A stretch of DNA of 64,000 nt from Moniliella sp. 'wahieum' (Eukaryota), in contig RSEE01000048.1 in the NCBI GenBank assembly GCA_003971905.1, positions 186,001 to 250,000 on the forward strand. The letters run 5' to 3'. A program made the translations under genes and the position numbers. How positions within the stretch are numbered: position 1 is the first letter of the stretch; every line of letters starts with the position of its first letter. The notes under the pieces are model-generated. The model saw only the letters and a program-made list of their open reading frames with translations, was not told where the DNA came from and searched no databases. Positions 1 to 63,853 of this stretch are shown piece by piece.

Positions 1-284
1 ATTTCAGAAATTTCACGCTTGATCTAAGTTCCCATTTCCAACTGCGTCAGGCCTCACCTCAGGCCGGCCAAGTGCAGGTCCTTATACTCGCTGGCTGTGC
101 CAACATACTGTTTGTCTATGGCAGGGAAACAATGGAATGGGTTATGCAGATCCATGATCATGGAAAGAACAGACACACAGAGATGAACTAGATGAGTGGA
201 AATCAGTGCAGGCAAACAAGGCCAACAAGTCAGTCAAACGTAATCTTGGTCCCTTGGCTGCCCTCAGCAATTGCCCCCGACTGC

Positions 285-1514
285 TTAGCCACTGCCGATG
301 CTACCGTTGGAGGATTGGAGGGGTTGTCGGTTCGGCCGGGCCTCCTCCGAATCCGACTTATCGTCATCCCATCGCACACGCTTGTTTTGGCTCTTGACTG
401 GCGTTTCAGCTTCCTCCTGGGCTTTCGCGAGGCGCTGGCGCCGCTCCTCAACCATCCGCATCCGGCGATCAAACATGATCTTTTCCGACGTAGTCATCTC
501 CCGTGCGGCGCCTTCCATGGGCGGAAGCAGAGATTCGATGGTCTGCTCTTGTTCATCCGGAGGGGGGACACTGAAAGGACGCCGGAGTAGACTGCCATGC
601 AGCGTAAGCATGTGCTTGGCGACGGTCATGCTCACGATAGTGAACGTCAACTTGCCGTCTGCGCCGCCAAGGCGCGAGAGGTCGTCCTTGTTCCGCCAGT
701 AGCCAAGGGAATGAGGTGCATCTCCTCTTCATCCTGGTCAAAGGGCTGCTCCGCGGCAGTGTCATTCTCATCCTGCTCAGGCGCCTCCGATTCGTCATGG
801 ATAAACTCCCAACGAGTGAGGTCAATGTGCTGCGAGCTGATCGACGCGTTGAACAAGCCATCGAGCAACAGCGACACATGCGATGGCGACGACAAGATGA
901 TCTTCCCCTCCACCTTCATGCCTATCCTCGGGCTCCACACTAGACATCCGACTTGGATGGGGACCAATCCGAACGCGCCATCGGCCTCGATCCGGCCGGT
1001 GGGACGCTGGAAGGACTTGGGGGTGGCGTGGTGGGTAACAAGAACACCTTCAAGCTCAGTACGTACCTGAAAACTCCCGCGTTAGTCGCTCAGATCATCA
1101 AGACAAAGGGGGAGTGGGATCAGAGGGAAAAAAGCAAAACGTACTGGCAAGAGCATCGTGTCGAACAGCTCGGCCACCGCTTGGGTTGGGTCGGCTGCAA
1201 AGACGGGGGGATAGCCATGTGAAGGGTAGGGTACATTTTGCGGTAGCATGACACTGCCCCTGAGGTCTCGTCCGAGTCGACATCGTCAAGCGGGGGCTGG
1301 TCGGAGGCACGGGGGCGGCGACTGCTCTCTTCAGAGTGGGAATGGACTTGGACTTGGAATGGGACTTGGACTTGTGGGTCTTGCTGCTGCTGTGCTTGTC
1401 GCTGGAGCGGGGCTTGGTGTGCTTGTCTGATTTTCCTTCGCTGGTGCGGGGCTTTTTGGACTTGCGCTCGGCGGGCGAGGGATTCTTGCGCTTAGATGGC
1501 GCGTCTGAAGACAT
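285..1514 (-). CDS. RPA43: RNA polymerase I subunit A43 (Rpa43 family), frameshifted in this assembly
   Basis: ATG at 1514 (MSSDAPSKRK, Lys/Ser-rich N-terminus). Intron ~1067-1144 (GTACGT..CTAAC..CAG). OB-fold segment 'CLVWSPRIGMKVEGKIILSSPSHVSLLLDGLFNASISSQHI' and 'FTIVSMTVAKHMLTLHGSL' resemble fungal Rpa43. Confidence 0.8.
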
Positions 1515-1960
1515 GGTGGTGGTAGGGTTGGGGGGGCGGGTGGCAGAGAAGGTGTGGAGGGGCGCAAATATTTTTTCCTGGCTGGCTGGAGGACGCGGAT
1601 GTGAGGGGGGGGATGGGTGTGACGGCGTTGCACCGAACAGGGGTCTTGCGAAGGCGATGCAGTTTAGCATCTGAGATTAGATTTCAGATTTCAGAGAGAA
1701 GCTCCAACGCGCGCGACGGCACTGGGATACACATCATGCATCATGCATCAATGTTTGCGGCGGGCACAGTGGCGCTGCGCTGACGACCATTTTTTTTTTT
1801 TTTTCGTTCCGCCGGCGGTCGTAGGACCGTTTTGCTTGAGTGCGCAAGTGCGGGTCTGGCCGCCGGTCTGTGCGCTGGGCTTGTTGGTCTCGTCACTTTT
1901 TGCTTGTGGGCCCCTCAACGCCAAACTTTTGCCACCACCCTTCTTCCTTACCACCCCACC

Positions 1961-2673
1961 ATGGCTGCTGAGGTTCCTACATTCAAGCTTGTGCTAGGTG
2001 CGTGTCCCCCCTGCCATTCTTTCCTTGCTCCCATCCCGTCCTAACCGGTCGCTCTCTTTCGCTCAGTCGGCGATGGCGGTACGGGCAAGACCACGTTTGT
2101 CAAGCGCCACTTGACGGGCGAATTTGAGAAGAAGTACATTGCCACCCTCGGTGTCGAAGTCCACCCGCTCTCTTTCCACACCAACTTTGGCAACATTGTC
2201 TTCAACGTCTGGGACACTGCCGGCCAGGAGAAGTTTGGTGGTCTGCGCGACGGCTACTACATCCAGGGCCAGTGCGGCATCATCATGTTTGACGTTACTT
2301 CGCGCATCACATACAAGAACGTGCCCAACTGGTACCGTGATCTGGAGCGCGTTTGCGAGAACATCCCCATCGTTCTCTGCGGAAAAAGGTGGACGTCAAG
2401 GAGCGCAAGGTGAAGACGGGCGCTGTCACTTTCCACCGCAAAAAGAACCTGCAGTACTTCGAAATCTCGGCCAAGAGCAACTACAACTTTGAGAAGCCTT
2501 TCCTCTGGCTCGCCCGCAAGCTCGTCGGCAACAACAATCTCGAGTTTGTTGCCGCGCCGGCTCTCGCTCCTCCCGAGGTTCAGGTCGATGCGGCTCTGAT
2601 GCAGAAGTACCAGCAGGAGCTTGACACGGCCGCGGCCGCCCCGCTGCCGGACGAGGACGATGGCGACTTTTAA
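1961..2673 (+). CDS. GSP1: Ran GTPase (Gsp1/Spi1)
   Basis: [12 protein letters not shown], intron 1998-2066, then [15 protein letters not shown] and [14 protein letters not shown], ending in acidic DEDDGDF. One base is missing in the GNKVD motif at ~2385. Confidence 0.98.
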
Positions 2674-3109
2674 GCGACGCGCATCAGTCGTACCTGTATT
2701 CGCCTTACACTCCCTCGTTTCTGTCTCCCTTTTACTTGAAAGGGCTCGTGCCCCAAGCGCTTTTTTCGGTCCCTGTCTGCGTCATATCCAATTCGTCCGG
2801 GCGTCCACGATGCATGACGACCCCAGAATCCATTTCCCCCGCATGCGGCTCTTGGCCAATTTTTTCTGCATTGGCTAGCCGAATAGATAGCCCGCGAGCT
2901 ACATGCATATCGAGTACCATCGTCGAACATGCAGGAGAGGGGAGCAACACTTACAATAGATGAAATATAAGTAGACGTGTGCTCAGCCTGAAGAAGCAGA
3001 AGAGAATGCAAGGGAAGGCGGCAGGGAAAAGACAGGTCAAGATTCTGCATCTGACAGGATTGGTTCCCCGTTCCAGATTTTGACTTGGTTCTGCCGCGAG
3101 GACCGGCGT

Positions 3110-4974: not shown

Positions 4975-6179
4975 GGCCCAAGCAATGAGGGCAGATGGAG
5001 ATGGTGGCGAGGTAGAAGTGTGCGGGGTGCCCCGGACTGGATCACGCCCAGCTGCCAGCCCAGAGCAGGCGAACGCGAGGAAATGAAAGTTGCATGCGGC
5101 CAATTGCGACGACGATTACGTATGTGCTGCCGCTTTCGGTCTGATCGACATCTGGATTAGATCGATTTATCGATTAAGCGATAATCGATAATCGGCTGAT
5201 GATCATCGAGCATCGATCAGCGCTCAGCGCAGCCGACGCTCCTGTGGCGTCCAAAGCGCCAGGAGAACTTACCAGGCTCCAACGCATCGGCTACGGGGAC
5301 CATTGAATCGACGAGGAACTGCCTCAACCCGTGGGCGCCTCTCGGCATCCAGCCGAGGTCATCAAGACGGCCGCTTCTCTGACTGTTTCCCCTAGCTTGG
5401 CGCAGGGGCGCATATGTGGCAAAAAACCGGTTGGGGTCCCCTCCAGTGAAGAACCCACACGAAAACTACAAGAGAGACGGGTTTGTAACGGGGCGACACG
5501 GCGGGCGAGCGAGCCCGGCCAAAGTCATACGCTCTCCTTGTCCCCCCTGCCTGGGTTGTGTCTACACGTCACGCGTCACGACAGGAAGGGCCTGTCTGAA
5601 CACACAGTACGTTGAACGTTGAACCAACCCATGTACTCCATTGCGTCTAAACAGAGTACGTTCCCTGCAACTTGGATCGAGCCCCTTTTCCATTCGACCA
5701 AGGTATCCGTGCGTTGGCGTTTTGGGTCTCTGATTTGCCTTGAAGTATTTGTGGACTATTTTGGTCGTGGACGCAAGCGAGCTTTTCTGAGTTTAACTTC
5801 CGGATCTAGGCGAGTTACATAGTTCCCTGGTATGTGCGTTTGGCTTCGCTGCGAGGCTCTTACCTGAGCACCCTGAGCCTCAGGCCTCATGCTGGCCTCA
5901 TGCATCAGCGCATCAGCAATCCGGGTTTCTTCCGCCTCGATCCAAGACGAATGGAAAGTCAAAGAGGGCGTTCATTCTTTGAAATTAAGGAAGATGCAAG
6001 AAGGGGGAGTGGCACTGAGAGTTATATCTAGGTAGGAGAGAGACGCTTTTCCACCTTCAAATTGTCTTCAGCTTGATTGTTCAGGTCTCAGAACAACGGC
6101 TACGAAAGTTGGTCCCTGGAATGGTAGCGATGCTTGTCCATATCCATCGCAATGACAGAGTACTTTTGAGATAGCCGAC

Positions 6180-8217: not shown

Positions 8218-9035
8218 GGGGAGGCGGGGGGCGGGGGCGGAGGCGAGGAAGCGAGGGAGAGCCGGGTGGGGCTGGGTGGGCCGAGGCCGAGGCCTTCTGG
8301 GGGGCAGTGTCGGCCGGCTGGATGGGCGCGGGCGGTGGATGGGTGGCCTACGTACGGGCGGCCGGCAGCGGGGGAGCGACACGGCTGTCGGAGGCCATCA
8401 CGCGTCATGCGTCATCCATGCTTGCTCGGTGCAACGCAACCGCCGCCGGATGAAAGTTGCAAACGCTTTAAAGTGCAGGCCTGGGACACAGGAGATGGCG
8501 CTGCGCAGGGGCAGTGTGGGTGCTTATCGCGTGCGAGACACTGTCCCCGCGGCTGGGCTGGCTGGGCGCCGTGGTGGCGCTGTGCCCCAGGCTGCTCCTC
8601 TGCGGCCCCAAAGCGGCAGGGAAGACACTGGAGAATGGTGTGTTCGTATACGTACGCACGTCGCAGCGCACGGGCGCTGTGCTGCGGCGCCCAGCCCCCT
8701 GCAGAGAACAGCAATGGGGTCGATGGACGCGCTTTCACCCAGCCGCGGCCGCCTGATACTCGCCGTCGGAGCACTGGTCCTCCCGACCGCAGGGCTCGCA
8801 CCCAGCACGCAGGACCCAGCACCCACCAGCACTCTTCACCGGCCACGCCGCTCACCCGTCCTGCGTTCGCCTCGGGCCGCACCAGCCGAGCAGCATCCAT
8901 CCACGCCGCCGCCCTCCGCCGCCGCAGCCCCGCCCGCAGGCTATGTATGTGTGCCTGCTTCTTCCACGCCCCTCAAACATTCCCGCCCCGCTCCCGCCCC
9001 TCCTGCCCCTCCTCCTCCACCGCCACTCCACCGCC

Positions 9036-12902: not shown

Positions 12903-13083
12903 TTGTTGTTGCCGTGGCTACTGCAGTATATGCCCTTACTTTGGAGGCAAATGATGAGTATCTAGGCTCGAGGTGAGGTGGCCATCTTCTGCGATAGACC
13001 GAGATAGAGAATGTCAGAGAAAAATAGCCCTTAGGTCGCACAAGCAGTCAGCTTCTGATTAACGAAGGAGATAGGCATTGGAT

Positions 13084-13117
13084 ATTGAACGTTCAACGTC
13101 ACTGTTGAACGTTCAAT
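13084..13117. repeat. Perfect 14-bp inverted repeat with 6-bp spacer; each arm contains a 12-bp palindrome
   Basis: ATTGAACGTTCAAC gtcact GTTGAACGTTCAAT, between the Zn2Cys6 gene and the carrier gene. Confidence 0.9.
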
Positions 13118-13450
13118 CTTCCCCACCCCCCAAGGTCGAGTGGACTACGTACTGGCTGGATGACCGATGATCGATCGCAGGCCCAGCGGCGCAGTCCTGC
13201 GGCTGAGGCTCAGCGCTGGTTCAGCTGCAGGCCAAAACGCGCTGAGCCGAGCTCCTTCGATTTGGATTTGGGGCCGTGGCCATCTCAGATCTCAAGCATT
13301 CAGCTACGATCTGTCGACCCCACCACCTCGTCCGCACCATCACTTCTTCAACGCCCAACGTGTAACCCGTTGGAGCGCGCCCCTGTTCCGCCCTACCGTA
13401 CCTCGCCCCGCCTGCCCTCCCCCCTCCCCCTTCAAAAAAGCACACGACAG

Positions 13451-14467
13451 ATGGAGGACACGGTCGTGGCGGGTGCGTTCGCGGGGCTGGTGTCAGCCGT
13501 GCTCACCTGCCCGTTGACGTGGTCAAGACCCAGCAGCAAGCTCATGGCGCCTTCGCTCGTGGTGTCGGTCCTTTTCATGGAGCCGGTACTGAAGCTCGCG
13601 GGGTCCGCCATACTTCTAAGGCATCACGACCCCCGACAACGGCTACGGCGCGTCAGATTGCTCCCAAATCTTGCCAAAGACGCATCCGGGGGTTGTACCA
13701 TGGGCTGGGACCGACCGCCCTCGGCTACCTCCTACCTGGGCCATCTACTTTTCCGTATATTCCGAGTGTAAGAAGCGCTTGGCCAAAGTGTATGGTACAG
13801 GTGACATGCAGTTACCCAGCACATTCTTTCAGCAATGGTGGCCGGCTCGGCGAGCGTGGTAATTACATCGCCTTTGTGGGTGATCAAGACGAGGTTTATG
13901 GTGCAAGCACTGCCACACGCTGGGGATGAGGCGCCGTATCGCAACACCTTTGACTCGTTTGTGCGCATTTACCGAAGCGAAGGTTGGGGGTTCTACAAAG
14001 GTCTGGTGCCATCCTTGATGGGGTGAGCCATGTGGCGATTCAGTTCCCGTTGTATGATGGGTTGAAGCGCACGCTTCACCGCCGACTTGGTCGTGGGCCA
14101 ACCGAACCATTTAGCGTCTACGAAATTCTCGCGTGCTCTGCGTCCAGTAAATGGTCGCCTCGTGCCTCACTACCCCCACGAAGTGCTGCGTACCCGGTTG
14201 CAAATGCAGCCTGCGGCAATGGCCTCCCCCACTGCTCATGCGCGAGCAGGGGAGAGGATAGGGTTGGTGGACACAATTCGGGATATATGGTCCCTCTCGG
14301 GCGCGGGTTCTACCAAGGCATGTGGGTTAACTTGGCGCGCACCGTGCCCAACGCGGCAGCCACGATCCTGGCGTATGTATTGCTGTTCTGATGGATAAAG
14401 ACGTGCTCAGTACTGACCTGGAAGCAGATACGAGTTGGTGCTCCAGAAGCTACAATCTCTGCACTAA
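13451..14467 (+). CDS. Mitochondrial carrier, NAD+ transporter (Ndt1/Yia6)-like subfamily
   Basis: Three Px[D/E/W]xx[K/R]T[R/Q] signatures (CPLDVVKTQ, SPLWVIKTR, YPHEVLRTR) and 'GLGPTALGYLPTWAIYFSVY', typical of NAD+/folate-type carriers. Last intron 14373-14427 gives the end YELVLQKLQSLH*. Confidence 0.85.
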
Positions 14468-16211
14468 CCGTAGGAGTCGAGCCCCTCAAGATTACGCCTG
14501 GACAACCTTTTCATTGTTGGGCCTATCATCCACAATTACGCACCGACTCGCGCCATATCCGGCTCACCCTTGCTTCTCTCGAGCTGCACGCTGTTGTCAT
14601 TTTGGAAGGAGGCATCGAGGCGTTTAGGTCTATCCTCATACATCGCTTTTACAACGCCAGTGTTTGCCAAGGAGACGATTGTCCCAGTCCTATCCGAGAG
14701 TTATCGTTTCCGCCCTCTCGGACCACACGAAATCATTACTGCAATACCGAACGGTCATGAATGCGTCCGCAAACTAGCCCTCTCAAAAAAGCTGGAACCG
14801 TAGGACTACACGAAGTCCTATTCATGCCCTTACAATGGAAGGTGCTCAGCTCGCGTAAGGGCCTCGCTATACACGCTACACGGCTGGTAAGCAGACCCCT
14901 CATTCTCTTGTTGGGGGCACTATCACGATCTTCGCTATGGGCACTTTTTCCCTCCGTGCATTCTACAGCTGTGGACGGCAGTGGCGCGCGCGACTGATTG
15001 TGATGGTCTATGATTCCGACGGGTACGCGTCCCCCATTCACCTTCAGCATGTGCTCACTAGATTGTTCTTGTTGGCTCCGTATGATGTTTCTTTCCCGTG
15101 GCGGGCTTGCCCCCCTCCATGGGCTCGGCATATGGCGCGCGGGACCTCGCATCTCCCGCCACCGTCCAGAATAAATGGCGGAGTATGAGGTATAGCAGGG
15201 TCGCCGTCACTAAGGTTCACACGAACATGTCATTCCATGATGGAGGAGGGAGTCATAGTGAGGATCATCCGGTCACTAGCTGAAAGGGCGCTAAAGGGGC
15301 GATTGAGTATGGAAAGCCGTACGACGTTGGGCTGGTCAGCATGATGTGGCTGCTAGATTGACGCCCACAAGTACTGGACTGGCAGCTGTCGCCTGACTGC
15401 GTGAGGGGTATGGCAGACCGGGGGTAAATCTCGAGCCGGAGCCACGTTACGCGTTAATCACGACCAAGCCGTTGGAGCTCGGGGTGGCTATCGAGCCATG
15501 CTGCCTGGAGAGACGCTCCACGCGGAGGAGCCACCGAAGCAGTGTTGGTCAATGGATTTGCTTTCTGGTTTTGGGTGGCTGCGATGCACGACGCATGATG
15601 CATGACCGGTGACCAATGCACAATGGCTGTGACTGACCGGTGACCTGCCTGACCAGTTTCCCACTGCCGGAGTCTGAGCGTTGAGCCTCCGCCTCCATGC
15701 AGCAGCAACACGCCTGGCTGGCCAGGGTCCCAGCGGCCACACTGGCCCCCGGCTGCGGCGCGAGCGACGCGTGGGGCTCTCACCAGCCCCTGCACGGCGC
15801 CGCTCTCTGACTCGCAGGTGATTGAGCGAGCACCGCTGATCCCTACGCATCACACTGCCGCCGTGCGGACTACAGGGGGCATCGACACGCCCAGCGCGCC
15901 CAGCACCAGGGCACTGCGACGGCCAACGCTCGTCCAGTCGCTCAGGCGCGGGGGGGCGAGGCATTCGGCCTGCGGGCGTGCGGCCTGAGGGCGTGAGGCT
16001 GGCTCAGGCCGGAGCCGAGAACATGGCCCTCGGGATCTTGCGACTCCACTCTCCACCACCACGACCGCCGTTGGCATCACCAACACCTTCTCTTTCATCA
16101 TAACCACGCCTCTCTCGCCACCTCCCGCGCTGATCTCGGGGAGCGTGTGAACTCGATCCAGCTCCCTCTGCGCTTCCATAGCGCACCGCCATTGCGGCTG
16201 CGCTGTCTCTG

Positions 16212-19760: not shown

Positions 19761-20829
19761 GGCGCCAGCGTGCACTCGCGCCGTGTTGTGGAGGGTCAGA
19801 GTGCGGAGATTTTGACGCTGGACGACGACTAGCGCCCAAGGCTTTGTGCGTTTCTCCATCTCCTTCCCAGTAACCACGACCCGTTTCCAAGTTGTTGAAG
19901 CTTGACGCTCGCCTCCTTTTATTTGCCCTCCCACGCCCTTCATCCTCCTTGCCTCTTCCTCTCTTCTCCGACAGTTTCCTGCTCGTTGCGCCCGAGGGGC
20001 TTTTCTGTTGCTCTTGGCACGTATATCCCAACACGTCTGGTGTTGTCCATCAAGTCTATCTTGTTTAACCGTGCAGACCCATAGTGAGTCCGAGTGAGGC
20101 GTTTCGGTTATGGATCGCATCAGGTGTACTGATGGGCAATGACGCGAAGGTAGTCGAGGAGAGCACTTGTGCAAATGTCTCACGTGTATCCCTCCCTTTC
20201 CGCCTCTGGGCGATGGTGAGTAACCCGCGATACGTCTTTGAAGCTTGGTTTCGCAAACGCGTCACGACCGCCACTCTCGGGTCACCCAAGCACCGCACCC
20301 AGTCCACCCAAGGAAGCACTTTGGCCGAACAGGGGGGCGTGGGTCTGGAGTCATTTCCCGATTCTTCCATATCGTTCGTTGCTTTCGTATCTGTTCTCTT
20401 CTCCCGACCATCGTAGTGGCAGACCCCGCGCCCAGGTGGGGAGTCTAGTAATTATCCAGGAACCACAGGCTGCGACTTAACCCTTTCTCGCGTATAGCAC
20501 GCCATTTTCCCCTCGCTCCAGGAAAACTCCCTATTTCATCTGCTTGAAAACTCATCATGTAAACACAATTGACGGTTGTACGATTAGAGGACAAGGGTGG
20601 CTAGATCGGGTAGACCAAACGACGGTCTTGCAGTACTCGCCAAACGAGGAGGAAAGAGAGGGTGGGATACAAAACCAAACTGCTCTGCCAAAAGAGAGAT
20701 CGTCGAATCAGGCAGAATGGAGCGGACAGATCGAGCAGAGATCCGATAGGCCAAAGTACAGTACAAAGAGGGAAGCTACAGCAAAAAAGGCGGCCGGAAA
20801 CCGGGAGCAGGGTTCGACTCGCCTCTGAC

Positions 20830-24548: not shown

Positions 24549-27499
24549 ATGCGCCGGCTGCGACAAACACTGTTCCGCTTGGGCGAGGAAGGCGTAGGCG
24601 GGTAAGGAGCAGCGGGCACCTCGCCGCGTGGGAGGGAAAGAAGACGGAAGAGGTGCGGGAATGGCGTTTGTTGTGCGTGGTCGCGGCCGCACGGACGGGG
24701 GCGCATGCCGGCTCAGTGCGCGTGAATGACGGCGAGAGGCAAATATTGCCTCGGCTGGGGTAGGAACTGCTGCGAGTGGACGGGCCGCCTGGGGCGGAGG
24801 GTGCGGGGTTGGAGCCGCTGGAGAGCTGGGCCAGCCTAGCGCGCTTGGCGCGGAACGAGTTGAGCTAGAGACAGAGGCAGGGGCAGGGGAGACACAGAGG
24901 GTGTCAGTGGGGGAGCAACAGAAGCTGGGAGCTGCTCACCTTCTTGCGCGCCGCCTGGATGCGCTCATCGCGTCCGCGCGGGTCGGCGGCGGCTGGGGCG
25001 ATGGCAGGGACATCATGACGAGGGGGGGGCGTGGCAAAGTGCAAGCGGACAAGCACAGGCAAGAAGAGCCAGTGGGGGCGGGGGGGAGGGGGAAGGACTG
25101 TGGTGGCGGTGGCGGTGGCGGTGGTCGCTGTTGCAGTGGCTGGTGTTGTGTGGTTGTGGTTGTGGGGGGTCGTAGGCGCTGCGTTGGCTGTCGGGCTGAA
25201 GGCTGAGGCGAGGGGAGCGCTGACAGCTGTCGGCGGACGGCTGACTTCAGCCGGGCATGCAGCAGGCGTCGCCCAGTAGCTCGGAGCTCGCAACCAGCGA
25301 TCCCCGTGCGTCAGAGCACTGCCCCTGTGCCTGCGCCTCCATGGGGGCTGCCGTGGACACCTCATCGATCATCGATCTCGGTCATCGGTCGTGTCGGAAG
25401 CTCACCCACATGCTGCTGTGCCAGCCGTGCCTGCCTGGACGAATTCGTCAGCGCTGAGCCTCACCCATCATGCAAGACAGGGGCCACTGCTCCCTGCGGC
25501 GATGGCGCCCATCACGTGCCAAAGGCATGATTCGCAGTCGATCACCACAGGCCAGCACAGCGGCTGTCCCCCCACACAGCTCAGCCTCCGGCGCTGGCGC
25601 CGTGCCCACTGCCAGCCATGCCCATTCCTGTGCCTTTGAAATGTTCTCCCCATCTCGGGCTTATAAGACGAGCAATAACGGACCCGCGGGTTGGGCCAAA
25701 GACGCATCCACCAATCTGTGGCCGGGTATATATAGCAGAACGCTTGTGCTGCCTATAGGGCGTACACCCCATGGTGGAGAATGAAGCCTGAGGTAAGGAA
25801 CAACGGCACCGATCTGCTTCCATGCGGAGGAATGGGGTGGCTCAAAAGAGGGTGACATAGAACATGATGACTCTACTCATGAAGAGGTCTCGTCCATTGA
25901 AAAGGTGTACGATGACGACAACAGTATATAGTAGAGAAAGATCGACGTTCCATGCACCACCAACCCTCGGTGGTTACTCTCCCACTTTTGACACACAAAC
26001 TATAGTCGATCAGAAAAGGCGGGATGGAGGAGTTCTATGAACCTGCAAGAGCAAATGCTGGATGAAATCCGGAGAGACCATATGGCACTTTCGCTCCATA
26101 GTACGTTGTGTATAGACGCAGCCGTGGTGCCAACGGGCGCACAGTCCAGGGGCTATTCCCCCGGATCCCGTTCTCGGGCTTGCGGTTTCCACCCCTTATA
26201 TTCCCTTCATCGATCATCCATTGTTTTCACCTTCTCTTGTCTGCGTCTGCGAGAGGGTTGCGGATGTAAGTACTAAGCAAAGATAGGAACGAGGGGTATA
26301 TAAGAGCCAATTTTTCGCGGATCGTTTTGGCTTTCAGGATATACAACTGCTAGATGTGGGAGCAAGTTTCTCTCCGGAGGGATTCTCTCTGTGAGGCCCT
26401 ATGGGGATTACTAGGTTACTACTAGTGGGATCAGCGCGATCAGCAGCGCGCTCAGATCCCAGACGGCGTTCCGGGAACTCATCAGCCGTGAGCGCGCGTG
26501 AGCGCGTGATGAACTGCCATGCCGCCTTTTAAAAGTCACAAATTGGCAAGGTGAGATGAAGGCAAAGCGTCAGCGCGTCAGCTTCCCACACCGGTCACTA
26601 GCACTACGCACCTCAGTTCTCGATCTCAGCCCTCTTCTCAAATTGAAGGGCCTCATCAAGTAGGGTGTGTTGAGCTGAGAAAAAGAGCCCTCCGCGCCGG
26701 CAACAGAAGCGGTTACGGCGTATACATTGTGTTACTTCTATTCCTTTTTCCCTGCAAAGGGGCAGTGTAGGCGGTCCAGAATGTGGAGCACAGTGACCTG
26801 TTGGGGGTGGCTAGGATCTGTATTCAAAATGTGTGGCGGTCGGAGCCCCGGCGCCACACCATAATATAACTGGGCGTCTCCTGCCCGATGTTAACTGTTG
26901 CCGCATTCAGAACATTCAACGACTCCGCTATCACCCGTCGTTAATCTTAATCAAAAGGTTGAAGTTTGCTCACAAAATGCCACATCTCACAGACCTCTCA
27001 GCGCCTCAACATTCCCGCGTGTTGTCCGCAATGCTTCCTCTCGGCGCCACCCATCCGGAACACAACACGGTGGTATCCACCCCGGGTATAGCCGAATCTC
27101 TATAGGCAGAATAGACATACTGTTAAGGACACGTCAAACGTTTAAGGGGAGAGACCCGCCACACGGGAGGCGAATAGAAAGATCCTGTTACATATTAGGG
27201 GAGAAAAAGAGCGGCATACGTGTGGGCGACGAGATGCGTTCGATGTCTGCGCTTGCTCCTGCAGGTACCGTGCATTGAAGAGGATATCTGAGTGGACATC
27301 CCTCTCTTTGGCTCTGACCAAAATGATCGACCTAATCCTCTCCCTGCGTGCATGTTGCATGTAGCGTATTGTGGTTTTCGTGATTTAGCAGTAGTGTATA
27401 TATATACTGCTTTTAACCCCCGCATACATCAGTTTCCCCCCCCCGTTTCGCTTTCTTTGCCCTATCATCCCACGTTCTCTTCCTTCTGAGATTGCCAGC

Positions 27500-32619: not shown

Positions 32620-33735
32620 CGCTGTCGCCGCAACGCTGGTTGGTCTGCGAATCCAGTCAGACCAGCGAGGGGGCGGTGGGACACTCGGTCTAAGTACTCA
32701 TGCTCACGCCGCAGACACGTGACACCATGGTACGTAACGTAATGATTAATGGTCCTGCTTCCGTAATTTGCCCCGCACTGTGCACGGTTGTTGGGCGGAC
32801 GAAAATAAACACACAAAAGTTGTCACGCTGTCGGGGCTATAAGCGCTAAGGCGAGGGAGACAAGAGTCGGGACTAGGTAAAGGAAAGTAGCAATCATTGG
32901 GGGGGGAAGAAGCAAGAGTAAGGCCCCTGGTGCGAAGCGGAATAACAGGGAAGGAGCAAGATGCTCTCGAGACGAAGGGATTGGAAATGGGCGCGAAAAG
33001 TCGAGCTATATATTCAATGTGCATCCATATTTTCATTGTCAGAGCTGTTTAAGGCGGGGACAAAAAACGCTGCGCCTAAACCGAACCGTTCATCTTGCGT
33101 GTGATGCTTCATAGCACGAACCCCGCTTAAGGAACCAGGGGAATGGCCAGGAAAGGACCTCAACACCCAAAAAAACCATATTATAATGCGCGTAAAATGT
33201 GCACAGGAGATTATGTATTATAGCAACAGATCGACAGCAAATCCATATCATTGGCAAAGCATACTAGACAGATATAGTCAGGGGAACTGCTTTTCGCTCA
33301 CACCATATGTGACTGGGTTCTTCTGCCGTTTTTGCGTAATACACTGCAGCTCATGCATGCTCACAGACAAAAATACTATTGGGAGGCCAAATGACATGGC
33401 CAGAACTGTTGTGAGATCTGAGATCTGAGAGGCTATCGATTATCGTGAGACTTTCTGGTTCCTGTGCGCCATGGATCTGCAAACTGAATGTATCCGCGGC
33501 GCATGTGGATGGACGTGGGCGCCATCTGCAACCACAAGAAACTCCTCAGGCAGTTCTTTCCAATAATGTGGCTGAATTTTTTAGCGCGGTGGTGTTTTCT
33601 TGGCGCCATACAAAAAGCACCATCATATCGATTGCATCACATGCGTTTCACTATAGTCCTATAGTCACTAGTCACTAGAGTCACTATAACCACTCAGGCC
33701 TCCGACTCCCATCGATCTGAAGCTACATGTCACAG

Positions 33736-33780: not shown

Positions 33781-36219
33781 CCATCTTCGACATCAATCGA
33801 CGACCATCGATCATAGTAGAGATCACATACACAGATCGATCATCCAGATCATCAACACTAGAAAACCGAAATCTGTTTCATTAAAAACACAATCACCCGA
33901 CGGGACACACTTTATACTTCTCATAATAGCCTCTTGTTACCTCTCCTCAGAACCACATCCTCCATTCTCCTCCTCCTTCAGCACTCCGTACCTCACCTCA
34001 GGCCCCTCAGGCCTCGATGCGCTCAGTCGCGCCTCCTTAACGTTAAGTGGATATCATCTCGGTGTGAGGCTAAAAAATAAGGAATGAGGCCTTGAGGAGC
34101 TTTCAAAGCAGCCTCTCATACACTCATCGCAAGTCAGCATCATGGAGAGGAGCCAAATGAGTCAAAAAGGCAAAAAGAGCGCATTTGCTCTCAGAACTTC
34201 TCAATCATGCCGACGACAATATAGAACACCGCGGGAAGAATCTGACCGCCAGAGCGCTGCCGGCCTCGCTGTGAAAATGGAATGGGTGGCTATTATATTA
34301 GGTGGACGAGAAGCCTACGAAAGCCTCTTGTGAAATGTGATACCCTGCATACACGAAGGTGGGCTGGGTAGGAATGCGCGTGTGGAGACTTGCCAGGCAG
34401 AGTACTATGAGCAATGATTAATGATTAACAAGCAATCCGTGCGGGCGGGGATGACTGATGCAGTACCCGATGGCTGTACTGGATCGGCAAACAAATGATC
34501 GAGTGTATTGACTGTCTTGGAGTCAGTATTAGCGGGTGTTGGACACACGGGCTCCTCTTTGGTTGCTGGGTGCGATGGCTCGATGATGATGATGGGGCCG
34601 AGATGCAAAGAGGGAGGAAGTGCAGCGCTTGAACTGGCAACTGGCAAACTGGGGGCGGGGGTGAGGCAGGCGCTGGACATGGCTGGCCATCCTTCTTTCG
34701 GCTGGGCAGAAGAGTGTCAGCAGTGGAGTCATTAAGTCGATGAGGCCGGGAGGGGCAAATTAAGGCGAGGTCTGAGATTGGGAGGGAAACCAGAGAACAC
34801 CAAGGAGTTGCGAGCGTATTAGGACGTGCAGGCGCTGCAGGGAATTCATTTTGGTTGAGAGCTGGGGAGGTGGCAGAGATAACGTCACACGGTCCCCTTG
34901 GGCCTTGCCTGTCGCCGCAGCGGATGGGCAGGGTCCAAGTGGAATGTTGGTGAAGCTCGGCTGCTCCCACTTGGAGGCGACGGCTGGCTGAGGGCGCAGA
35001 AGAAGCTGAAGGCAGAGCAGTGTGGCCTGTGTCACGTCGCAGTGCAGTGACATGTGAGGGAGCTAGGCAGAGGCAGTGTTGAACTGAGCGGCTGAACGTT
35101 GACCTGGACGTTGAACATGGCCAAGGCGACGGATGGCAGGGGAGATGGGAATGGGTTAGGGCTGGGATGGGCGATCGAACTGTGCTCTGTGCGCTGATCG
35201 AGGGCCGATGGTCGATGATCGATAATCGATGATCGGCCTCGTCCACACCAGCAAGACAGGCACCGTGCGGCTGCGCACAGTAGCGCAGACGCCGGGCACA
35301 GGGACAGTGCTGAGCCCAGGGCGATGCGCCTGATGTGCAGCTGGCCTTGATATCGGCTGCGATCTCCATGGCCAGCGGCAGCACAGCGCCTGTGTGTGTG
35401 GCTGCGGCGGGGCTCCAGTTGCTAGTTGGGCCCCTGCGGGCACCCAGCGTACCCAGCGCAGATAGCAATCGGGGCGACATGGGGCATCGCGATAGTGGAT
35501 AGGCGCCAGGCCCATCTGGAGTGGGCTATGACGGTCTGCTGCTGCTGTGCGCTGAGGGGGCTGAGGCGCCGAGGCCGCTGAGCGCGCTGAGGGCGCGGGG
35601 CGCTGAGGCCGAGGCCGGCTGAGACGCTGTAGGCGTGCTAGCGCAACAGTATGGAACAACCGATGGCAACAAAACTATACTGCACCTGCTTTTCAAGCTT
35701 CTTCCAGGAGTTCGACGTTGACGTTGACGTGAACGTACTGAGGGTGCTGAACGTACTGAACGTTGACGTTGCTCGGAACGGACTGAACGCGGGGCATGCG
35801 GCAGCTGGCGAGTGGCTTCACTAGTCACTACTAGTGGATGACTTCACTCTTCAAGCTTCAAGCACTAGTGACAGCGAGACTGCTGCCAACCTACCGCTGT
35901 GCCAGTTTTGCGGAGCTTGGGCGTAAAGTTGGTACCTTGGCCTTAGCGCCAATTAAGTGTAGCCGAGGCGGACAGTTTTTCGCACATCCACGCCGGCCCA
36001 CCCAGTGCCCTGTCCCCTCCACCTCCTCCACCACCCCCAACCCTCAACCCCATCATCTCCGCGGCGGCAAGCTGGCTTCGTTGGGATGGCCCTCGCGCTT
36101 TCCCCCGCCGCCTCCCCTTCGTCTTCGCCACGGCCCCAGCGCCCATCCCTGCCCGCCGCACGCCGGCAGAGCACCTCTCGCTTCCTGGCCAGGCTCCTTC
36201 CTTCCTTCCCCTCATTGCC

Positions 36220-50390: not shown

Positions 50391-50424
50391 CGCTTACAAC
50401 CGCTTGCAACCGCTTGCAACCGCT
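50391..50424. repeat. 10-bp tandem repeat (CGCTT[A/G]CAAC x3) in the GSH2/RPL39 divergent promoter
   Basis: cgcttacaac cgcttgcaac cgcttgcaac cgct, read directly. Confidence 0.85.
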
Positions 50425-52351: not shown

Positions 52352-53080
52352 CTTGGCGGATCCGGGTCAACACGTCAAGGCGGAGCAGATGGGAGCACAG
52401 CCAGAAACAGCAAGCGAGGGCACGAAGCTGCACTAACGACGCACAGCGGGCTATCGAGGATCAGCGTCAAGCAACGATGGGGCAAAAGCAAGGTGCGATG
52501 GCAACGCAGACAAGCGGTCTGGGTGGCGACCACGGTGGGCGCGACCGAGTCGGTTTAAATAAGGGCTGTGGCCAGGCGGGGGGTTGCGGATGAGGTAAGC
52601 AGTGCGTGGCCACTGCCCCTGTGAGAGCCCCCCACAGGGCCGCAGAACTGCGCGCCTCCGACGAAAGAGCAACGGTGAGCGTGGTGACCGGTGAGCTCAC
52701 AACAGAGGCCCTGTGCCAGAGGACAAGGAAACAGCCGGGTACACTGGCCGTGTGCCATGTTGGGAGGCACGTTGAACGTTCAGACGTTCAGCAGCTGAGC
52801 GCTGCGCTCAAGTTGAGCCTCAACCGAGAACGGCCAGTGGACCCGTGCCTACCCCCGCTGCATCACGTGCCAGGCGCCAGGAGGCCGCCTGGGCAGGATG
52901 CATGATGTGTACTGGTTGATGCATGATGCCTCCGACCCCATCGAGCGTAGAGCGACCTCGACCGCGTCTCTACACTCTGCCGGACTCACACCGCTGCCAC
53001 GCTCCCCCCCTCCCCCCGCACCCGTCCCTGGGTTGTCCTCTCCACACGCCCTCGTGTCCTGTTCCTCCGCACGCGCCAGC

Positions 53081-54396
53081 ATGCCGCGTGCTTCCTCTTC
53101 CTCCAAGTGGGCCCCACCCCCCATCTTGTACGTCCTCTCTCCATCCGCCCTCCAGCCCCAGCTCTGGCCGCCGCTGACACGCTTGCCTCCGCAGCCACGC
53201 GGATGATCTTGTTCTAGCACGCCTCACGGGGTATCCCGAATGGCCAGCCATGGTACGTACGCGTCTTGCTCACCTTGGCGCCCTGCTGACTCGCCCATGC
53301 CAGGTTGTGCGCAGCAGTCAAGTCCCCGATGCGGTGCGCGTCGCGTTTGCGGAATCGGGCAAGAAGCACATTGTGCGCTTTTTGCCCGACGCTGACTAGT
53401 ATGTGTTGCGTCTGTGTTGTGGTGTGGCTCTGATGGGGGCGGTGACCCGGCGACCCAATGACGCGAGCCTGACCTTTCCCCTTTGTTTGCAGTTACTTTT
53501 ACAATCCGCAGCAGCTGGTCGAGCTGGACGACGCCAAGATCCGCGCCTTTCTGGCCCGGTCCAAGCCCAAGCCGCACTCCATGCTTGCCGAGAGTTTACG
53601 CCGAGCGTACCAAATTGCTCAACATGATGCAATTAAATGGGCGCGCCAGCAAGACGCCCTCGTGGCCGCGGCGCAGATGGCAGCTGCCGAGATGGCCCAG
53701 TCGGATGAGGACGCGGGCTCGGCCCAGGAACCCGAACCTGAGTCGGAAGAGGAACCGATATGGGACAGCGATGAGATGCAGGGAAGCGACGAGGACGAAC
53801 TGCTTCCCCCACGCAAGCCCGTTGCCAAGAAGCCCGAGCCGGAGCGCAGGGCTTCATCCCGCGCCGGAAGGTTGTCCCCGAAACCGAGGATACGTCCGAG
53901 TCGGAGGATCGTCCAGCCAAAAGACAACGCAAGCCGACCGCCAAGCCCCAACCGGCCCCGGCTGTTGCTTCTCCCGCACCGGTCGCCGACGCTTCGTTGA
54001 CCGTAGCTGCTGATACAACCACCGCGGTGGGTGCTGAGAATACCGCTGAGCGGGTTAGGTGTTGGCGATTCGAGCTGCAGCGCATCTTCCTTGGCAAGGA
54101 GGGGATCTTGTTTGACGTATGTACTACCTCTCTCGCTTTGTACCTATCGCTCGTCAGTAGCTAACCTACTCACTCTACCTTGGGAACAGCTGATGGACCG
54201 CGCGGCAGAGGTGTTTGACCTGCTCGAAGCATCCCCTGCAATCACGCGTGAGCACATCAGGTTTAGCAGGATCGACAAGGTTCTCAAACGGGTCGTGGCG
54301 CTCAAGTCTGAGATGCCCGCGGTTGAGAAGAAGTACAAGTTCGCGGTGCGCTCCCAAAAGTTGCTGGTGGAGTGGCGGTCGCGTCTCAGCTTGTAG
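53081..54396 (+). CDS. PWWP-domain chromatin protein with C-terminal TFIIS-N/IBD-like helical domain
   Basis: Micro-exon at ~53217-53252 encodes ARLTGYPEWPAM (PWWP motif). Also 'ESLRRAYQIA', an acidic linker and C-terminal 'ITREHIRFSRIDKVLKRVVAL..YKFAVRSQKLLVEW'. About three N-terminal introns. Confidence 0.8.
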
Positions 54397-54826
54397 TGCC
54401 CCGCGGCCCCGCGCCCGCGGTTCGGGGCTGGGGATGAACGTGAAGTGAACGTGAAGGTTGAACGTCGATCCGTTGGTCGGATGCGTGGTTTTGATGACTC
54501 GAAAGTACAGAAGATGTAAAGGCGTGGGAAGCTGCTGTCCAATTTATTGCCCACGTATACTTGCTGTTGGGGCCGCCATGCCGGCGGCGCTGGTGACGCT
54601 CCAGTTGAAGCTCTAGTGCAAACGAACATCCACGCCCTCATGGCTTGAATGCAACTTGATGCATGATGCGGGTTGCGCCCGGGATCACGTGCATTACATA
54701 ACCAGCCACTGGCAACGCTTCGGCGGAGTTTCCCGGCGGGGTCTGATTCCGCCGTCTGCTACCGGGGGCCCCACGAAGAAACAGGACGGAGGCCAGCGGG
54801 CACCAGCACCAACCACCTTGAGCAGC

Positions 54827-57417: not shown

Positions 57418-58813
57418 GGCAGGGGGGCGAGGAGGATGGAGTCGGAGGTGGGAGGGAAGGGTGAGGGCGTGTGCTTAGGAGGCCAGAGGCGGGGCAGCAG
57501 TCATCGCCGGCGCGTCGAAGCGCGCACTGGGGACGAGGCGGAGAGGATGGTGGCAGTGGCGGGGGCGGAGCGCTGACTGGAGCGGGAGGTGTGCGGAGGC
57601 GCGAGGGTTGATGCGTCGCTGGCGGGACTCAGACGACGACGGGAGTGCGTGCTGCGTTACTGACCACGCGCCCAGTCGAGCAGGCGCCAATCAGAAGCTG
57701 GGCCAGCTGCTGTTGCGGCTGCTGCTCTGCTCGACAATCGAGGGCGAGGGAGGGGGATCGATGATTAAATGGTGATCGCTGATGTTGATTGCACCCACTG
57801 CTGCAGGATGCATGATGCATGTGCATGACCGATGATCCATCCGCCAGCAGGCAGCGACAGGCAGCGACGGGCAGCTGAAAAGAAAAAAAAGAGAAAAATG
57901 CACCGTGGGCCATGGCCCGCTCTGTCAGCTCCGCACTGCCCCCACGCCAGGCCCTCGACATCGAATCACGCATTGTATTCCCATCATGCATTGTCTCACA
58001 TGTCAGCGTCCGGTGACGCGGGTGACGTGGTGACGCGCCACTGCCACGCTGCCCGGGTGAAATTGAACGTCTGTTCCATGTTCCGTCCGTCCACACCGCC
58101 TTGCCTCCCCACCTGATACTGTCTTCGTGCTGGGGGCAGCACACCAGCGCCACCACGCCACCGCGGCAGCAACCCTCAGGGCCTCAGTACATCAGTACGT
58201 CAGTGTGCGCAACCACCACCAGCAGAGACTGGCTCTAAAATCTTATCTTCCTCCTCCGTTGAACGTTGACCGTCGCCTTGGCCCGGATGCATGATTGCAT
58301 CATACCCACCCATCAGCGTCTTCTGTACACACTCCCCACGCCGCTCGAGCTGGACAGCTGAGCGCATGCTGAACGTTGTTGTCCGCTGAGCCTCAGCGCG
58401 CTGGCTGTCGAGGACGTTGCAACGTTGAACGCTAATCGACTCCTCACTCTCAGCAGCGCCCGGGCGTGTGCGTTCCGTTCACCACGTCGTCTAGAGGCCA
58501 GCGGCCACCAGGGACACACAGCCTGCAACTGCAGCTAACACGAATCGCTCTCAAATCTAAATCGCAAGCTTCTTCCTCCTGTTCCAGTTGCATGAGTCAG
58601 GCAGCACACCCCCGGCGCACCCAACAGCATGTCAGTGCACACATGTAATGGGTACAAGAACATAGGCCTATGCACCAGAGGAGACGGCGTCTCCTCTGGG
58701 GGTCGAGACGTGCCACAGCACGTCCAGCGCTGGACACACATGCCGTGGTCATATTTTGGAAGGCTGGTCCAGGACAAGGCTTGCACCAGCCAAGCAGCAC
58801 ACCAAGAACACCA

Positions 58814-59294: not shown

Positions 59295-59853
59295 GGTGAC
59301 TACCAACGCCACCAAGGCATGTCAGTCCTACCGACCTTGTTCAAACCACCCCGAGATACGCTCGACAAAGGACCGGGTGCCCCTTGGCACAATCCAAAGC
59401 ACATCTCTCAGGTAGACAGCCGCTCATACGCACCTAAACTTGCTTGGTGACCTCTTGGCGGGAAGGCCAGCAAGGTGGTACCAGCCACCACCCCAAAACA
59501 ACCACACCAGTGTCAGGGCTAGGGTTGTGTGTGCTGCGGGGGTTCCTCTCAGCCGCACATGGACAGTGTGGAAAAATTATTGCGGCGGATACACATAGGC
59601 GTCTGGCGTGGCGGGACTGTGCAAGTCCCGGCTAGTAGGACACTGGTCTCGCGGCTGCCAAGAACCAGGCCGTTGTCCAGCGCACCCCTGTAGGGTTGGT
59701 TTCGCTCTGTTCTCCTGGTTCGCATCTTCGTCTCCGCTGCTCTTGCCGACATCGGTCCCTGCCGCCAAGCTCAAGGTAAGCCGGCATCCTGGGCAGCCCC
59801 CCTACCATGCTTGCGGGCCCTCGCTGACATGCTTTCTGCGCCACTGAAGTACA

Positions 59854-62547: not shown

Positions 62548-63570
62548 TCAGGCTGCTGCCCGCATCCTGGACCGCTTGCCTGTGATGGCCTGGAACCCAG
62601 TCTTGATCGCAGCCACGGAGCGTTGAGAGCCACACGTCTTGCACTTGACAAAGTAGATGCGGTTCTCGCGGCTCAACTCCGTGTCGGCGGATTTGCACGT
62701 CTTGCACTGGACATACTCGGAAATATACTGCGCAGCACGTTCTGAATCTGCTGTTGCTGGAACCGACCCTTGATGATCAACCGGCCCGCACCATCCTCGT
62801 TACCAATGGTACCCAGTTCGGCAAACAAGAACGCCTGCACGTGTTCATGGTCACGGTGCATGCGCCGGCAAATGTCAGCACAGTTGACAAACGCCGTCTT
62901 CTTCGACCCCTCGCGCTCGACAACAGGCGGGACCATGGTGTACTTCTTCTTGTCCCCAGACAGAGCCGGGTTGTGCTCACGCAACGTGACAAACACCCGT
63001 TCAGTAGCTGGGGGCGGAGGAGAGGGGGGAGGGGGAGGGTCAGCACTTCATGTCACCGTCAGCAAACCAGGAAGGATAGCACAACGTACCCATGCATAAG
63101 GGTACTTGTCGGTGCCCTTGAGGAACTCGACCTCCTTCTCCGGATCGTTGGCAAAGGGTTGACCTCGGGGTTTTCATCAAACTCGTCTTGATCCTCCTCG
63201 GCCGCGCCGCCCTCAGCCAGCGCCTTGTCAAGCTCGGCCAGCTTGTCCTTCTTGGACTTTTTCTTCTTCTTCAGGTCGCCAAACAAGTCTTCCGGTGCGG
63301 GCGGCCGAAGTAGCAGGCTCGGTGCTGGCGGGAGCGGTGGGCAGAGTCCTCCTTGGGCGTGTCCTCGCGGCTTCCTTGGTAGAAGGCAAGTTGTCGAGGT
63401 TGACAGTAAAGTTCTTGGCCGTCTTCTTGCTCTTTTCTTCTTCTTCATACCACCAAACTGGCAGCCAGCTCATCGTCGCCCGTCTGGCCCTCGCCATCGG
63501 GGGCGGGCGTGGCAGTAGGCGAGGTGGAAGCAGCGTCAGCCGCCGGAGTGGTCAAGTCGTCGTGGGTCAT
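62548..63570 (-). CDS. SUI3: Translation initiation factor eIF2 beta subunit
   Basis: Poly-Lys boxes ([15 protein letters not shown]), '[18 protein letters not shown]', '[16 protein letters not shown]' and a C2-C2 zinc ribbon (CKTCKS..CKTCGS), ending [16 protein letters not shown]. Confidence 0.96.
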
Positions 63571-63675
63571 GATGGCGAGGAACCAAAAAGCAGTCGCCAC
63601 TGCTCCTCTTTTTCGCCGGCTGGGGCCAGCGGCTCAAGACGAAGCCCCAGCAGCTAGTCACCGACTCGACCCCTC

Positions 63676-63709
63676 TTCCGCCCACCGTTCCGCCCACCGT
63701 TCCGCCCCC
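63676..63709. repeat. 12-bp tandem repeat (TTCCGCCCACCG x2.8) upstream of eIF2-beta
   Basis: ttccgcccaccg ttccgcccaccg ttccgccccc, read directly. Confidence 0.85.
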
Positions 63710-63804
63710 CGCCCAGCACCACACGACACTGCCGCCCAAGAAAAAAAAAGAAAACGGCAGACGGGCGGCGTTTGAAACGTTGCAATCTAAGCCGAGAAGA
63801 GGGA

Positions 63805-63853
63805 TGATCGATGACCGGTGACCCGTGACCCGTGACCAGTGACATGTGACATG
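63805..63853. promoter_or_regulatory. Array of seven TGA triplets in exact 7-bp phase
   Basis: TGA TCGA TGA CCGG TGA CCCG TGA CCCG TGA CCAG TGA CATG TGA CATG, about 240 bp upstream of the eIF2-beta ATG. The pattern is seen directly. A regulatory function is inferred only from position. Confidence 0.6.

Follow-up and report, generated by a model that had tools for sequence, protein, structure and literature searches.

Variable four-base palindromes between T-N-A trimers in fungal non-coding DNA: possible scars of hairpin-type breaks

What kind of process leaves, again and again in the non-coding DNA of one genome, an element in which symmetry and spacing are kept while the sequence changes from site to site? 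The question is raised by a stretch of 64,000 bases of fungal nuclear DNA from Moniliella sp. 'wahieum' (contig RSEE01000048.1, positions 186,001 to 250,000; G+C content, 59.2%), which as a whole is called the window here. A preliminary description of the window listed 35 places at which two T[G/C]A trimers (TGA or TCA) enclose a variable 4-bp palindrome, so that the trimers recur with a 7-bp period. The present analysis confirms that this pattern is real and far beyond chance. The palindrome frequently mirrors the bases that flank the trimers, and we tentatively read the sites as scars of a hairpin-type break at T-N-A with a Transib/RAG-like geometry, rather than as sites for a sequence-specific protein.

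An exhaustive scan that took in both coding and non-coding DNA of the window found the 10-mer at all of the 35 positions listed before and at four more (13285, 19896, 54242 and 57996), so that 39 of the 89 occurrences of T[GC]A-N4-T[GC]A have a palindromic spacer. As had been stated, 13 of the 16 possible palindromes are in use, the absent ones being AATT, ATAT and TATA. The expectation by chance was derived from 150 simulated sequences per Markov model of orders 1 to 5, which gave 3.4 (order 1), 2.9 (order 3) and 6.1 (order 5) sites with maxima of 9, 8 and 13, respectively. The range of 2.9–6.1 agrees roughly with the earlier guess of 2–3 chance matches, and the 39 observed sites lie well above the highest simulated number, 13. 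The excess is confined to spacers of four bases: at length 2 there are 6 palindromic spacers among 32, and at length 6 a single one among 63. Among trimer pairs around a 4-bp palindrome, TGA..TGA (18) and TCA..TCA (15) stand out from the next highest (6); since they are reverse complements of each other, they represent one motif in two orientations. Six additional sites pair TGA with TCA and are thus perfect 10-bp palindromes. When all 64 trimers are compared at distances of 3 to 14, the recurrence of TGA at distance 7 is the top outlier (40 versus 10.9 expected; z 8.6). The spacer is fully palindromic in 33, half-palindromic in 19 and neither in 14 of the 66 same-trimer T[GC]A pairs at this distance, where about 21 background pairs would, by our estimate, give roughly 1, 8 and 12.

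The form T[G/C]A given in the preliminary description holds for TGA and TCA and is too narrow, as TAA (3 sites) and TTA (2 sites) obey the same rule against an expectation of about zero. The actual rule is T-N-A, a 4-bp palindrome, and T-N-A with the same N, which is followed at 38 sites versus 1.5 expected. It is limited to TNA, other trimers of the c-N-c' type being at chance. Two sets of sites were used, one of 48 TNA-palindrome-TNA sites with any pair of N and one of the 38 with the same N; the middle base is thus identical in both TNA copies in 38 of the 48. For the T[GC]A sites, the same N is found in 33 of 39 against a baseline of 0.6 (p 8.5e-4). The 10 sites with different N (2.8 expected) include 7 perfect 10-bp palindromes, which, having complementary middle bases, form a smaller separate class. 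Exactly one of the seven features of the rule is violated at 80 sites versus 38 expected; the excess is seen for misses at T1, at A10, in the identity of N and in either palindrome pair, and is absent for misses at A3 or T8. Exact 7-bp tandem duplications point the same way: 16 are present in the window when low-complexity sequence is excluded, of which 11 have the form of TNA plus palindrome and 4 are one base off it by our own classification, whereas a random 7-bp unit would fit this form in roughly 2% of cases by our estimate.

The pattern is a lineage-specific property, because sequences from elsewhere are at chance level. The spacers in 528,559 bases from 80 eukaryotic metagenome loci are palindromic in 36 of 615 cases (5.9% versus 6.25% by chance), compared with 39 of 89 in the window; these loci were found with the deacetylase protein of the window at no more than 69% identity and serve as negative controls rather than as relatives. 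The same loci hold 34 same-N sites. Full-text literature searches returned no description of such a pattern, and they did not confirm the TCACGAA/TCGTGAA 7-bp repeats of Ustilago maydis that the preliminary description had named as a possible relation, the one paper returned for these being unrelated to judge by its title and abstract.

The origin of the variable palindrome is suggested by what adjoins it. With each same-N site oriented so that a purine is the middle base, the first half of the palindrome is repeated by the two bases after the second TNA in 19 of 38 sites, and its second half by the two bases before the first TNA in 16 of 38, where chance is 1/16 per side. At least one flank is mirrored in 27 of the 38 sites versus about 12% by chance. 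An unbiased search for the structure (ABCDE)(reverse complement of DE)(ABCDE) found 31 cases versus 4.35 expected, and its mirror form also 31 versus 5.35 expected. TNA stands in the required phase in 19 of the former and 16 of the latter, and the remaining matches are phase variants of the same arrays together with about the chance number of unrelated ones. Because of the flank mirroring and of this excess, the minimal event is a direct duplication of 5 bp (TNAwx) whose copies are separated by two inverted bases (x'w'). Some two thirds of the sites fit this 5+2 geometry. Where just one side is mirrored, the repeat mostly stops short of a sixth base, and the symmetry centre of the spacer lies between two bases. 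The spectrum of copied dinucleotides tracks the background of bases beside TNA in DNA of low three-base periodicity.

Two chains of sites are especially informative. The chain at 15596..15612 (plus strand) reads CA-TGA-TGCA-TGA-CCGG-TGA-CC, its outer flanks CA and CC mirroring its two differing palindromes, and positions 63805-63821 read GA-TGA-TCGA-TGA-CCGG-TGA-CC. Two independent events at one CA-TGA-CC or one GA-TGA-CC would yield exactly these two chains, while duplication of a palindromic 7-mer cannot give them because the middle 7-mer is non-palindromic. The second chain opens a lattice of eight TGA in 7-bp steps (63805..63849, plus strand) with the spacers TCGA, CCGG, CCCG, CCCG, CCAG and CATG, and with CATG again after the last TGA; its perfect sites start at 63805, 63812 and 63840, and the first two palindromes are mirrored by the GA and CC that flank their sites. 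In local repeats with a period of 8 or 9, TNA is likewise often followed by a palindrome and one or two further bases. At 58170-58200, four TCA follow one another in 8-base steps with the spacers GGGCC, GTACA and GTACG, each a palindrome with one extra base, as if the usual event had been joined by one untemplated base.

Placement of the sites was judged on a gene map made with an iterated codon model and Pfam, which is rough and approximate, so that gap classes could shift. The open reading frames (ORFs) of the codon model make up 46% of the window and those supported by Pfam 25%; a mask of plain ORF coverage, which at this G+C content leaves only 8% of the window ORF-free, is of no use for classing sites. 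The earlier statement that all sites are non-coding is nearly right. Only 1 of 48, TCA-CGCG-TCA at 8398..8407 (minus strand), lies in a predicted ORF (7990-10452), upstream of the Zn2Cys6 domain of that ORF, and none lies in a Pfam-supported one. Non-palindromic TNA-N4-TNA is found in predicted ORFs in 26 of 85 cases (Fisher p 3e-5) and in Pfam-supported ORFs in 15 of 85. The sites fall in bins with low three-base periodicity. On the rough map they number 26 in 8.26 kb of divergent, 12 in 8.29 kb of tandem and 1 in 4.02 kb of convergent gaps (binomial p 3e-4), so that upstream gaps are favoured on this map. That most intergenic regions carry sites was overstated: none is found in the gaps at 39.1-40.2, 41.6-42.2, 50.4-50.9 and 59.45-59.85 kb, four of five convergent gaps of the rough map are site-free, and no site occurs between 35860 and 52685. 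The divergent gap of the genes for ribosomal proteins L21e and S9 (59450-59848) has no TNA-palindrome site, unlike most divergent gaps. Orientation is mixed (18 TGA and 15 TCA) and, in the few one-directional cases, independent of the nearest gene; for example, 57996 (TCA) and 58260 (TGA) are both between two minus-strand genes. Long blocks are strand-pure, 35020-35780 being mainly TGA in a region with a G+C skew of 0.19.

The pattern and its excess, its restriction to TNA and to a spacer of four, the mirroring of flanks and the avoidance of coding DNA are shown by the data; beyond them we infer a hairpin-type break, a transposon or another nuclease as its agent, and a preference for promoters. 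The target would be T-N-A in open, mostly upstream, non-coding DNA. A staggered 5-bp break would be made and one flank closed into a hairpin, which would then be nicked two bases off its tip to leave P nucleotides, after which the ends would be rejoined. Seven bases would be inserted in this way, five as a direct copy (TNAwx) and two as the reverse complement (x'w'), to give TNAwx-x'w'-TNAwx. Flanks are left in this state when a cut-and-paste transposon that makes hairpins on its flanking DNA is excised. The likeliest source would be excision of such an element, with a geometry like that of Transib/RAG, or else another hairpin-forming nuclease. The palindrome would vary because it is copied from whatever adjoined the TNA; each event adds a second TNA, and repeated events would therefore build 7-bp lattices; and coding DNA would be spared because an insertion of seven bases shifts the frame. 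If open DNA is preferred, as it is by several transposon families, the upstream bias would follow. A 5-bp duplication fits the Transib/RAG type and does not fit hAT, whose duplication is 8 bp. A variable palindrome that copies its neighbour is a mark of templated synthesis or of hairpin opening and not of protein recognition, and P nucleotides are by nature even-centred inverted copies of the terminal bases of a flank. The preliminary description had offered, as one of two readings, a fold-back or template-switch footprint in open promoter DNA, and this comes near to the anatomy now seen, with 27 of 38 sites mirrored and a 7-bp insertion that duplicates five bases. A bolder form of the reading, which we regard as rather doubtful, is that an undescribed, recently active and promoter-targeted DNA-breaking activity, perhaps a Transib/RAG-like or different hairpin-forming transposase, which may be domesticated, or a nuclease of a kind not known so far, feeds itself by leaving exact 7-base scars at T-N-A.

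Several points weigh against reading the sites as hairpin-break scars, and some of the differences from Transib-type footprints given at the end belong with them. The window yielded 94 inverted-repeat pairs, and none of the 25 longest has the look of an element with terminal inverted repeats; no transposase or nuclease domain was found by Pfam in 214 ORF translations, with 27 of the 175 remaining ORFs outside the scan. Palindromes of A and T only are too few (1 versus about 7 expected). Neither flank is mirrored in 11 of 38 sites, and both are mirrored in 8 of 38, where about 2 would be expected if events were one-sided only; left and right matches are statistically independent, as a decaying 14-mer would also give. 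The mirrored bases come from the wx end, with only one unambiguous case from the TN end, which a symmetric transposase does not predict. TNA spacings of 5, 6 and 8, corresponding to 0, 1 and 3 mirrored bases, are not or weakly enriched. T-N-A occupies positions 1-3 of the 5-mer while positions 4-5 are free, and the target is thus asymmetric, whereas known targets are mostly palindromic. The excess of the same N is marginal when compared with non-palindromic pairs at equal spacing (33 of 39 versus 33 of 50, p 0.054), so that part of it may come from local strand skew. The uniformity of the event far exceeds that of known footprints and what ordinary end joining would leave, and about 0.6 scars per kb would demand an unusually busy agent.

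Could the sites be functional instead? A protein or a pair of proteins may bind tandem T-N-A half-sites 7 bp apart, the sites having arisen by local duplication, with selection holding the core and leaving the flanks to drift. Sites of TALE homeodomain proteins typically have a TGA core, and the b-binding site of U. maydis is TGA-N9-TGA. The concentration in upstream gaps on the rough map would suit such a promoter grammar, as would the better preservation of cores (38 perfect versus about 42 excess one-off sites, while flank pairs match in 42–50%), the lack of an excess of misses at A3 and T8 beside an excess at T1 and A10, and the recurrence of three 10-mers, TGATGCATGA (six times, both strands counted), TGAACGTTGA (four times) and TGACCGGTGA (four times). 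However, there is no fixed recognition sequence. Only T1, A3, T8 and A10 are fixed, the 13 palindromes are used in near-background proportions, and to our knowledge no mode of DNA binding reads any palindrome whatever. A palindrome that mirrors its flank is not predicted by function, orientation relative to the nearest gene is mixed, and several promoters, that of the RPL21/RPS9 pair included, are without a site. We consider this explanation unlikely, and the factor for phased TGA/TCA half-sites that the preliminary description proposed as its other reading likewise leaves the flank-copying spacer and the 13 palindromes unaccounted for.

There are also mutational explanations other than a hairpin break. 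Tandem duplication of a pre-existing small odd palindrome, the 7-bp target x'w'TNAwx, by a staggered cut with fill-in or by gain and clean loss of an element, would account for the 8 of 38 sites that are full 14-mers of two units and for the independence of flank matches expected of a decaying 14-mer. Lone x'w'T[GC]Awx 7-mers are mildly enriched (137 of 1596, 8.6%, versus 5–8% for other c-N-c' centres), and symmetric targets centred on T-N-A are typical of DDE transposases, such as GCTNAGC for Tn10 and TWA for PIF/Harbinger. Random targets would, however, give palindromic spacers in 1/16 of cases where 33 of 66 are observed, and we know of no enzyme that prefers any palindrome. The non-palindromic middle unit of the chains at 15596 and 63805 is contrary to this model, and flanks match in 42–50%, far below the approximately 80% that core decay would suggest by our estimate; on balance, the model is improbable. 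Slippage of a heptamer microsatellite, in which near-self-complementary units expand more easily, perhaps with hairpin-templated correction, appears similarly improbable to us. The regions show cryptic simplicity, the words ATCGAT, CTGAG and ACGTTGA being repeated with variation; two chains (1734 and 33412) carry one unit three times, and the repeats of periods 8 and 9 described above would be in line with slippage. Left unexplained are the restriction to T-N-A centres, other c-N-c' trimers being at chance, and the unrelated palindromes of neighbouring units. Moreover, most sites have just two TNA without long arrays, two chains repeat one unit while two have differing units, and 11 of the 16 exact 7-bp duplications share the form of TNA plus palindrome, although slippage would lead one to expect any unit sequence. 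An artefact of assembly or sequencing is most improbable, as an error process would not respect coding sequence, from which the sites are excluded, and the sites are away from homopolymers.

Some further candidates were rejected. If P nucleotides came from a constant TGA flank, the fillers would always be TC/CA, whereas the palindromes vary, and remnants of transposon termini would yield one palindrome per family. Footprints of the Mariner/Tc1 type (TA-CWG-TA) would require self-complementary flanks, and the odd-centred hairpins of hAT elements predict complementary middle bases. Fill-in of staggered cuts of 2–4 bases yields direct, not inverted, duplications. Readings as C/D boxes or RNA duplexes fail for want of pairing. 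Stop codons in three frames might be suspected since TAA obeys the rule, yet TAG-TAG and mixed stop pairs at 7 bp occur at chance level only.

The individual sites are as follows. Both flanks are mirrored at TAA-TCGA-TAA (5182..5191, plus strand), TCA-CGCG-TCA (5569..5578, minus strand; a 14-mer), TGA-ACGT-TGA (5613..5622, plus), TCA-CTAG-TCA (33665..33674, minus), TGA-TTAA-TGA (34415..34424, plus) and TCA-AGCT-TCA (35851..35860, minus). Sites mirrored on one flank are, on the minus strand, TCA-GCGC-TCA (5217..5226), TCA-GGCC-TCA (5880..5889), TCA-GATC-TCA (13285..13294, newly found), TTA-CGCG-TTA (15447..15456), TCA-TCGA-TCA (25362..25371 and again 26207..26216) and TCA-CTAG-TCA (35818..35827), and, on the plus strand, TGA-CCGG-TGA (15634..15643 and 52685..52694), TGA-TGCA-TGA (52917..52926 and 54657..54666) and TGA-ACGT-TGA (58260..58269). 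Flanks are unmirrored at the same-N site TCA-GGCC-TCA (47..56) and at TCA-TGCA-TCA (5898..5907), both on the minus strand. Further sites on the minus strand are the A/T-centred variant TTA-TCGA-TTA (5167..5176) and the newly found TCA-CATG-TCA (57996..58005). The plus strand carries TGA-AGCT-TGA (19896..19905, newly found and in a convergent gap on the rough map), TAA-GTAC-TAA (26267..26276), TAA-GCGC-TAA (32840..32849), TGA-CATG-TGA (35048..35057) and TGA-ACGT-TGA (35093..35102 and 35757..35766). Besides the chains with differing palindromes, there are a chain of three TCA with TGCA twice (1734..1750, minus strand; sites 1734 and 1741), one of three TGA with GATC twice (33412..33428, plus strand; sites 33412 and 33419) and TGA-TCGA-TAA-TCGA-TGA (35216..35232, plus strand), in which the middle base is unlike between copies.

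Sites to which no strand is assigned comprise TAA-GTAC-TCA (32691..32700), with different N, and perfect 10-bp palindromes: TGA-ACGT-TCA, also with different N, at 13086..13095, 13106..13115 and 52773..52782; TCA-GTAC-TGA at 14407..14416, flanked on either side by an ORF piece of a putative mitochondrial carrier gene; TCA-GCGC-TGA at 25448..25457; TTA-ACGT-TAA at 34037..34046; and the newly found TCA-CGCG-TGA at 54242..54251. A 12-bp perfect palindrome, TTGAACGTTCAA, is present twice at a distance of 20 bases (13085-13116), and its 10-bp core occurs a third time at 52773-52782. The window also holds other repeats. A G+C-rich segment at 35520-35630 contains CTGAG six times on one strand with GC-only spacers of 9 to 17 bases; this word has a TGA core and is off the 7-bp lattice. 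ATCGAT/TCGAT words cluster with irregular short spacing at 5160-5216, 33700-33850 and 35200-35240; the clusters include a 9-bp tandem repeat, CCTCGATRT (33736-33790), and some words overlap GATAA words 7 bases apart (5179-5195). Two tandem repeats are not of the TNA type, namely a 10-base unit, CAACCGCTTG, present about 2.8 times at 50397-50424, and a 12-base unit, TTCCGCCCACCG, present about 2.7 times at 63676-63707.

The gene set of the window is ordinary housekeeping. It includes genes for RPA43, a Ras-family GTPase, a histone deacetylase, a Zn2Cys6 transcription factor, a TRP-like channel, a GH5 cellulase, YL1, a RhoGEF, a C2H2 protein, DASH Duo1, glutathione synthase, TFIIA, a PWWP protein, mS41, an OTU protease, ribosomal proteins L21e and S9, and a protein with an eIF5/eIF2-beta domain. 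On the minus strand at 21130-25368, six abutting ORFs of about 1,400 codons in total have no Pfam match; they represent either a single long gene interrupted by short introns or frameshifts or else a protein specific to the lineage. Among named matches, the glutathione synthase is closest to that of Tilletiaria anomala (57% identity), and this protein comparison therefore places the host within Ustilaginomycotina, the smut subphylum, near Georgefischeriales; matches in assemblies of sequencing runs reach 80% and 73%. When the one public sequencing run that was found, with a 0.07 share of words, was aligned to positions 1-20000, coverage among the matches listed was limited to the conserved Ras-like and deacetylase genes and a 254-base contig. 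This contig aligns with the divergent promoter at 1722-1967 with 7 mismatches and 18 gap letters, and a close relative of the host seems to be present at low depth in the sample of that run.

If the sites are scars of hairpin-type breaks, they would record thousands of promoter-aimed breaks in a fungal lineage without described Transib/RAG-like activity. By our own extrapolation, about 0.6 per kb over a genome of about 19 Mb, the published size for the nearest named relative, would amount to the order of 10,000 events. The outcome of repair would be far more uniform than in any known footprint, which raises the questions of which basidiomycete enzyme opens hairpins at exactly two bases from the tip and how much of the promoter sequence arises in this way. 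Were the DNA-breaking activity indeed self-feeding, lattices would be a visible share of promoter DNA and a mutational engine for new cis-regulatory sequence. If the sites are functional instead, a DNA signal would be defined by symmetry and spacing, not by sequence. In either case, the TNA-palindrome pattern will escape motif finders and repeat maskers or be split by them.

How, then, do the sites compare with known systems? Heptanucleotide simple-sequence repeats of bacteria may share the 7-base period, the TGA core and the intergenic position of the window sites. They form long homogeneous arrays or hairpin arms of a fixed unit, whereas mostly two TNA are found here, and the 4-mer varies and mirrors its flank. 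Elements of the PIF/Harbinger and IS5 types make 3-bp target duplications of T-N-A or T-W-A and are excised precisely, and mPing prefers promoters. They resemble the window sites in the T-N-A target and in the promoter preference of some members, but the duplicated stretch is 3 bases rather than the 5 of the window, and we know of no mechanism by which elements of the PIF/Harbinger type would add a flank-mirroring palindrome. Elements of the hAT group tend to insert near the 5' ends of genes. Footprints of hAT elements (Ac/Ds, Hermes) are like the sites in that a retained duplication is accompanied by palindromic P nucleotides from hairpin opening and end joining. It has been described that hAT, MULE, Transib and RAG form hairpins in flanking DNA, which are opened by host enzymes and end-joined with footprints (PMC5499845), and P-nucleotide palindromes occur in Ac/Ds footprints in a yeast, Candida albicans, where 28 types of footprint were distinguished (PMC5873905). 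On the other hand, the hAT target duplication is given there and elsewhere as 8 bp (PMC5499845, PMC1131882), in contrast to the period of 7 with a 5-base direct repeat. The hAT palindromes described are centred on the complement of the base adjoining the element (PMC5873905), which predicts complementary middle bases where the same base is found in 38 of 48 window sites, and hAT footprints are heterogeneous while the window sites are uniform.

The Transib/RAG type comes closer. Transib is described as the only eukaryotic superfamily with 5-bp target duplications (PMC1131882), a nick-hairpin mechanism with P nucleotides is given for the Transib/RAG type (PMC4840297), and Transib is reported in fungi only from soybean rust, a basidiomycete (PMC1131882; PMC4840297). 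The window sites retain a 5-base direct repeat equal to a 5-bp target-site duplication and, in 27 of 38 cases, the flank end recurs at their joint as an even-centred inverted copy. They differ in that neither an element nor a transposase is seen in the 64-kb window, that the target is T-N-A plus two bases whereas published Transib targets are GC-rich or CASTG-like (PMC4840297, PMC1131882), that two bases are always mirrored and always on one side, with little of the heterogeneity in P-nucleotide length, nibbling or choice of flank that is expected of such footprints, and that the sites occur in lattices at a density of about 0.6 per kb. Judged by this comparison, the sites resemble known transposon-type excision scars with P nucleotides, their uniformity, density and target being unusual.

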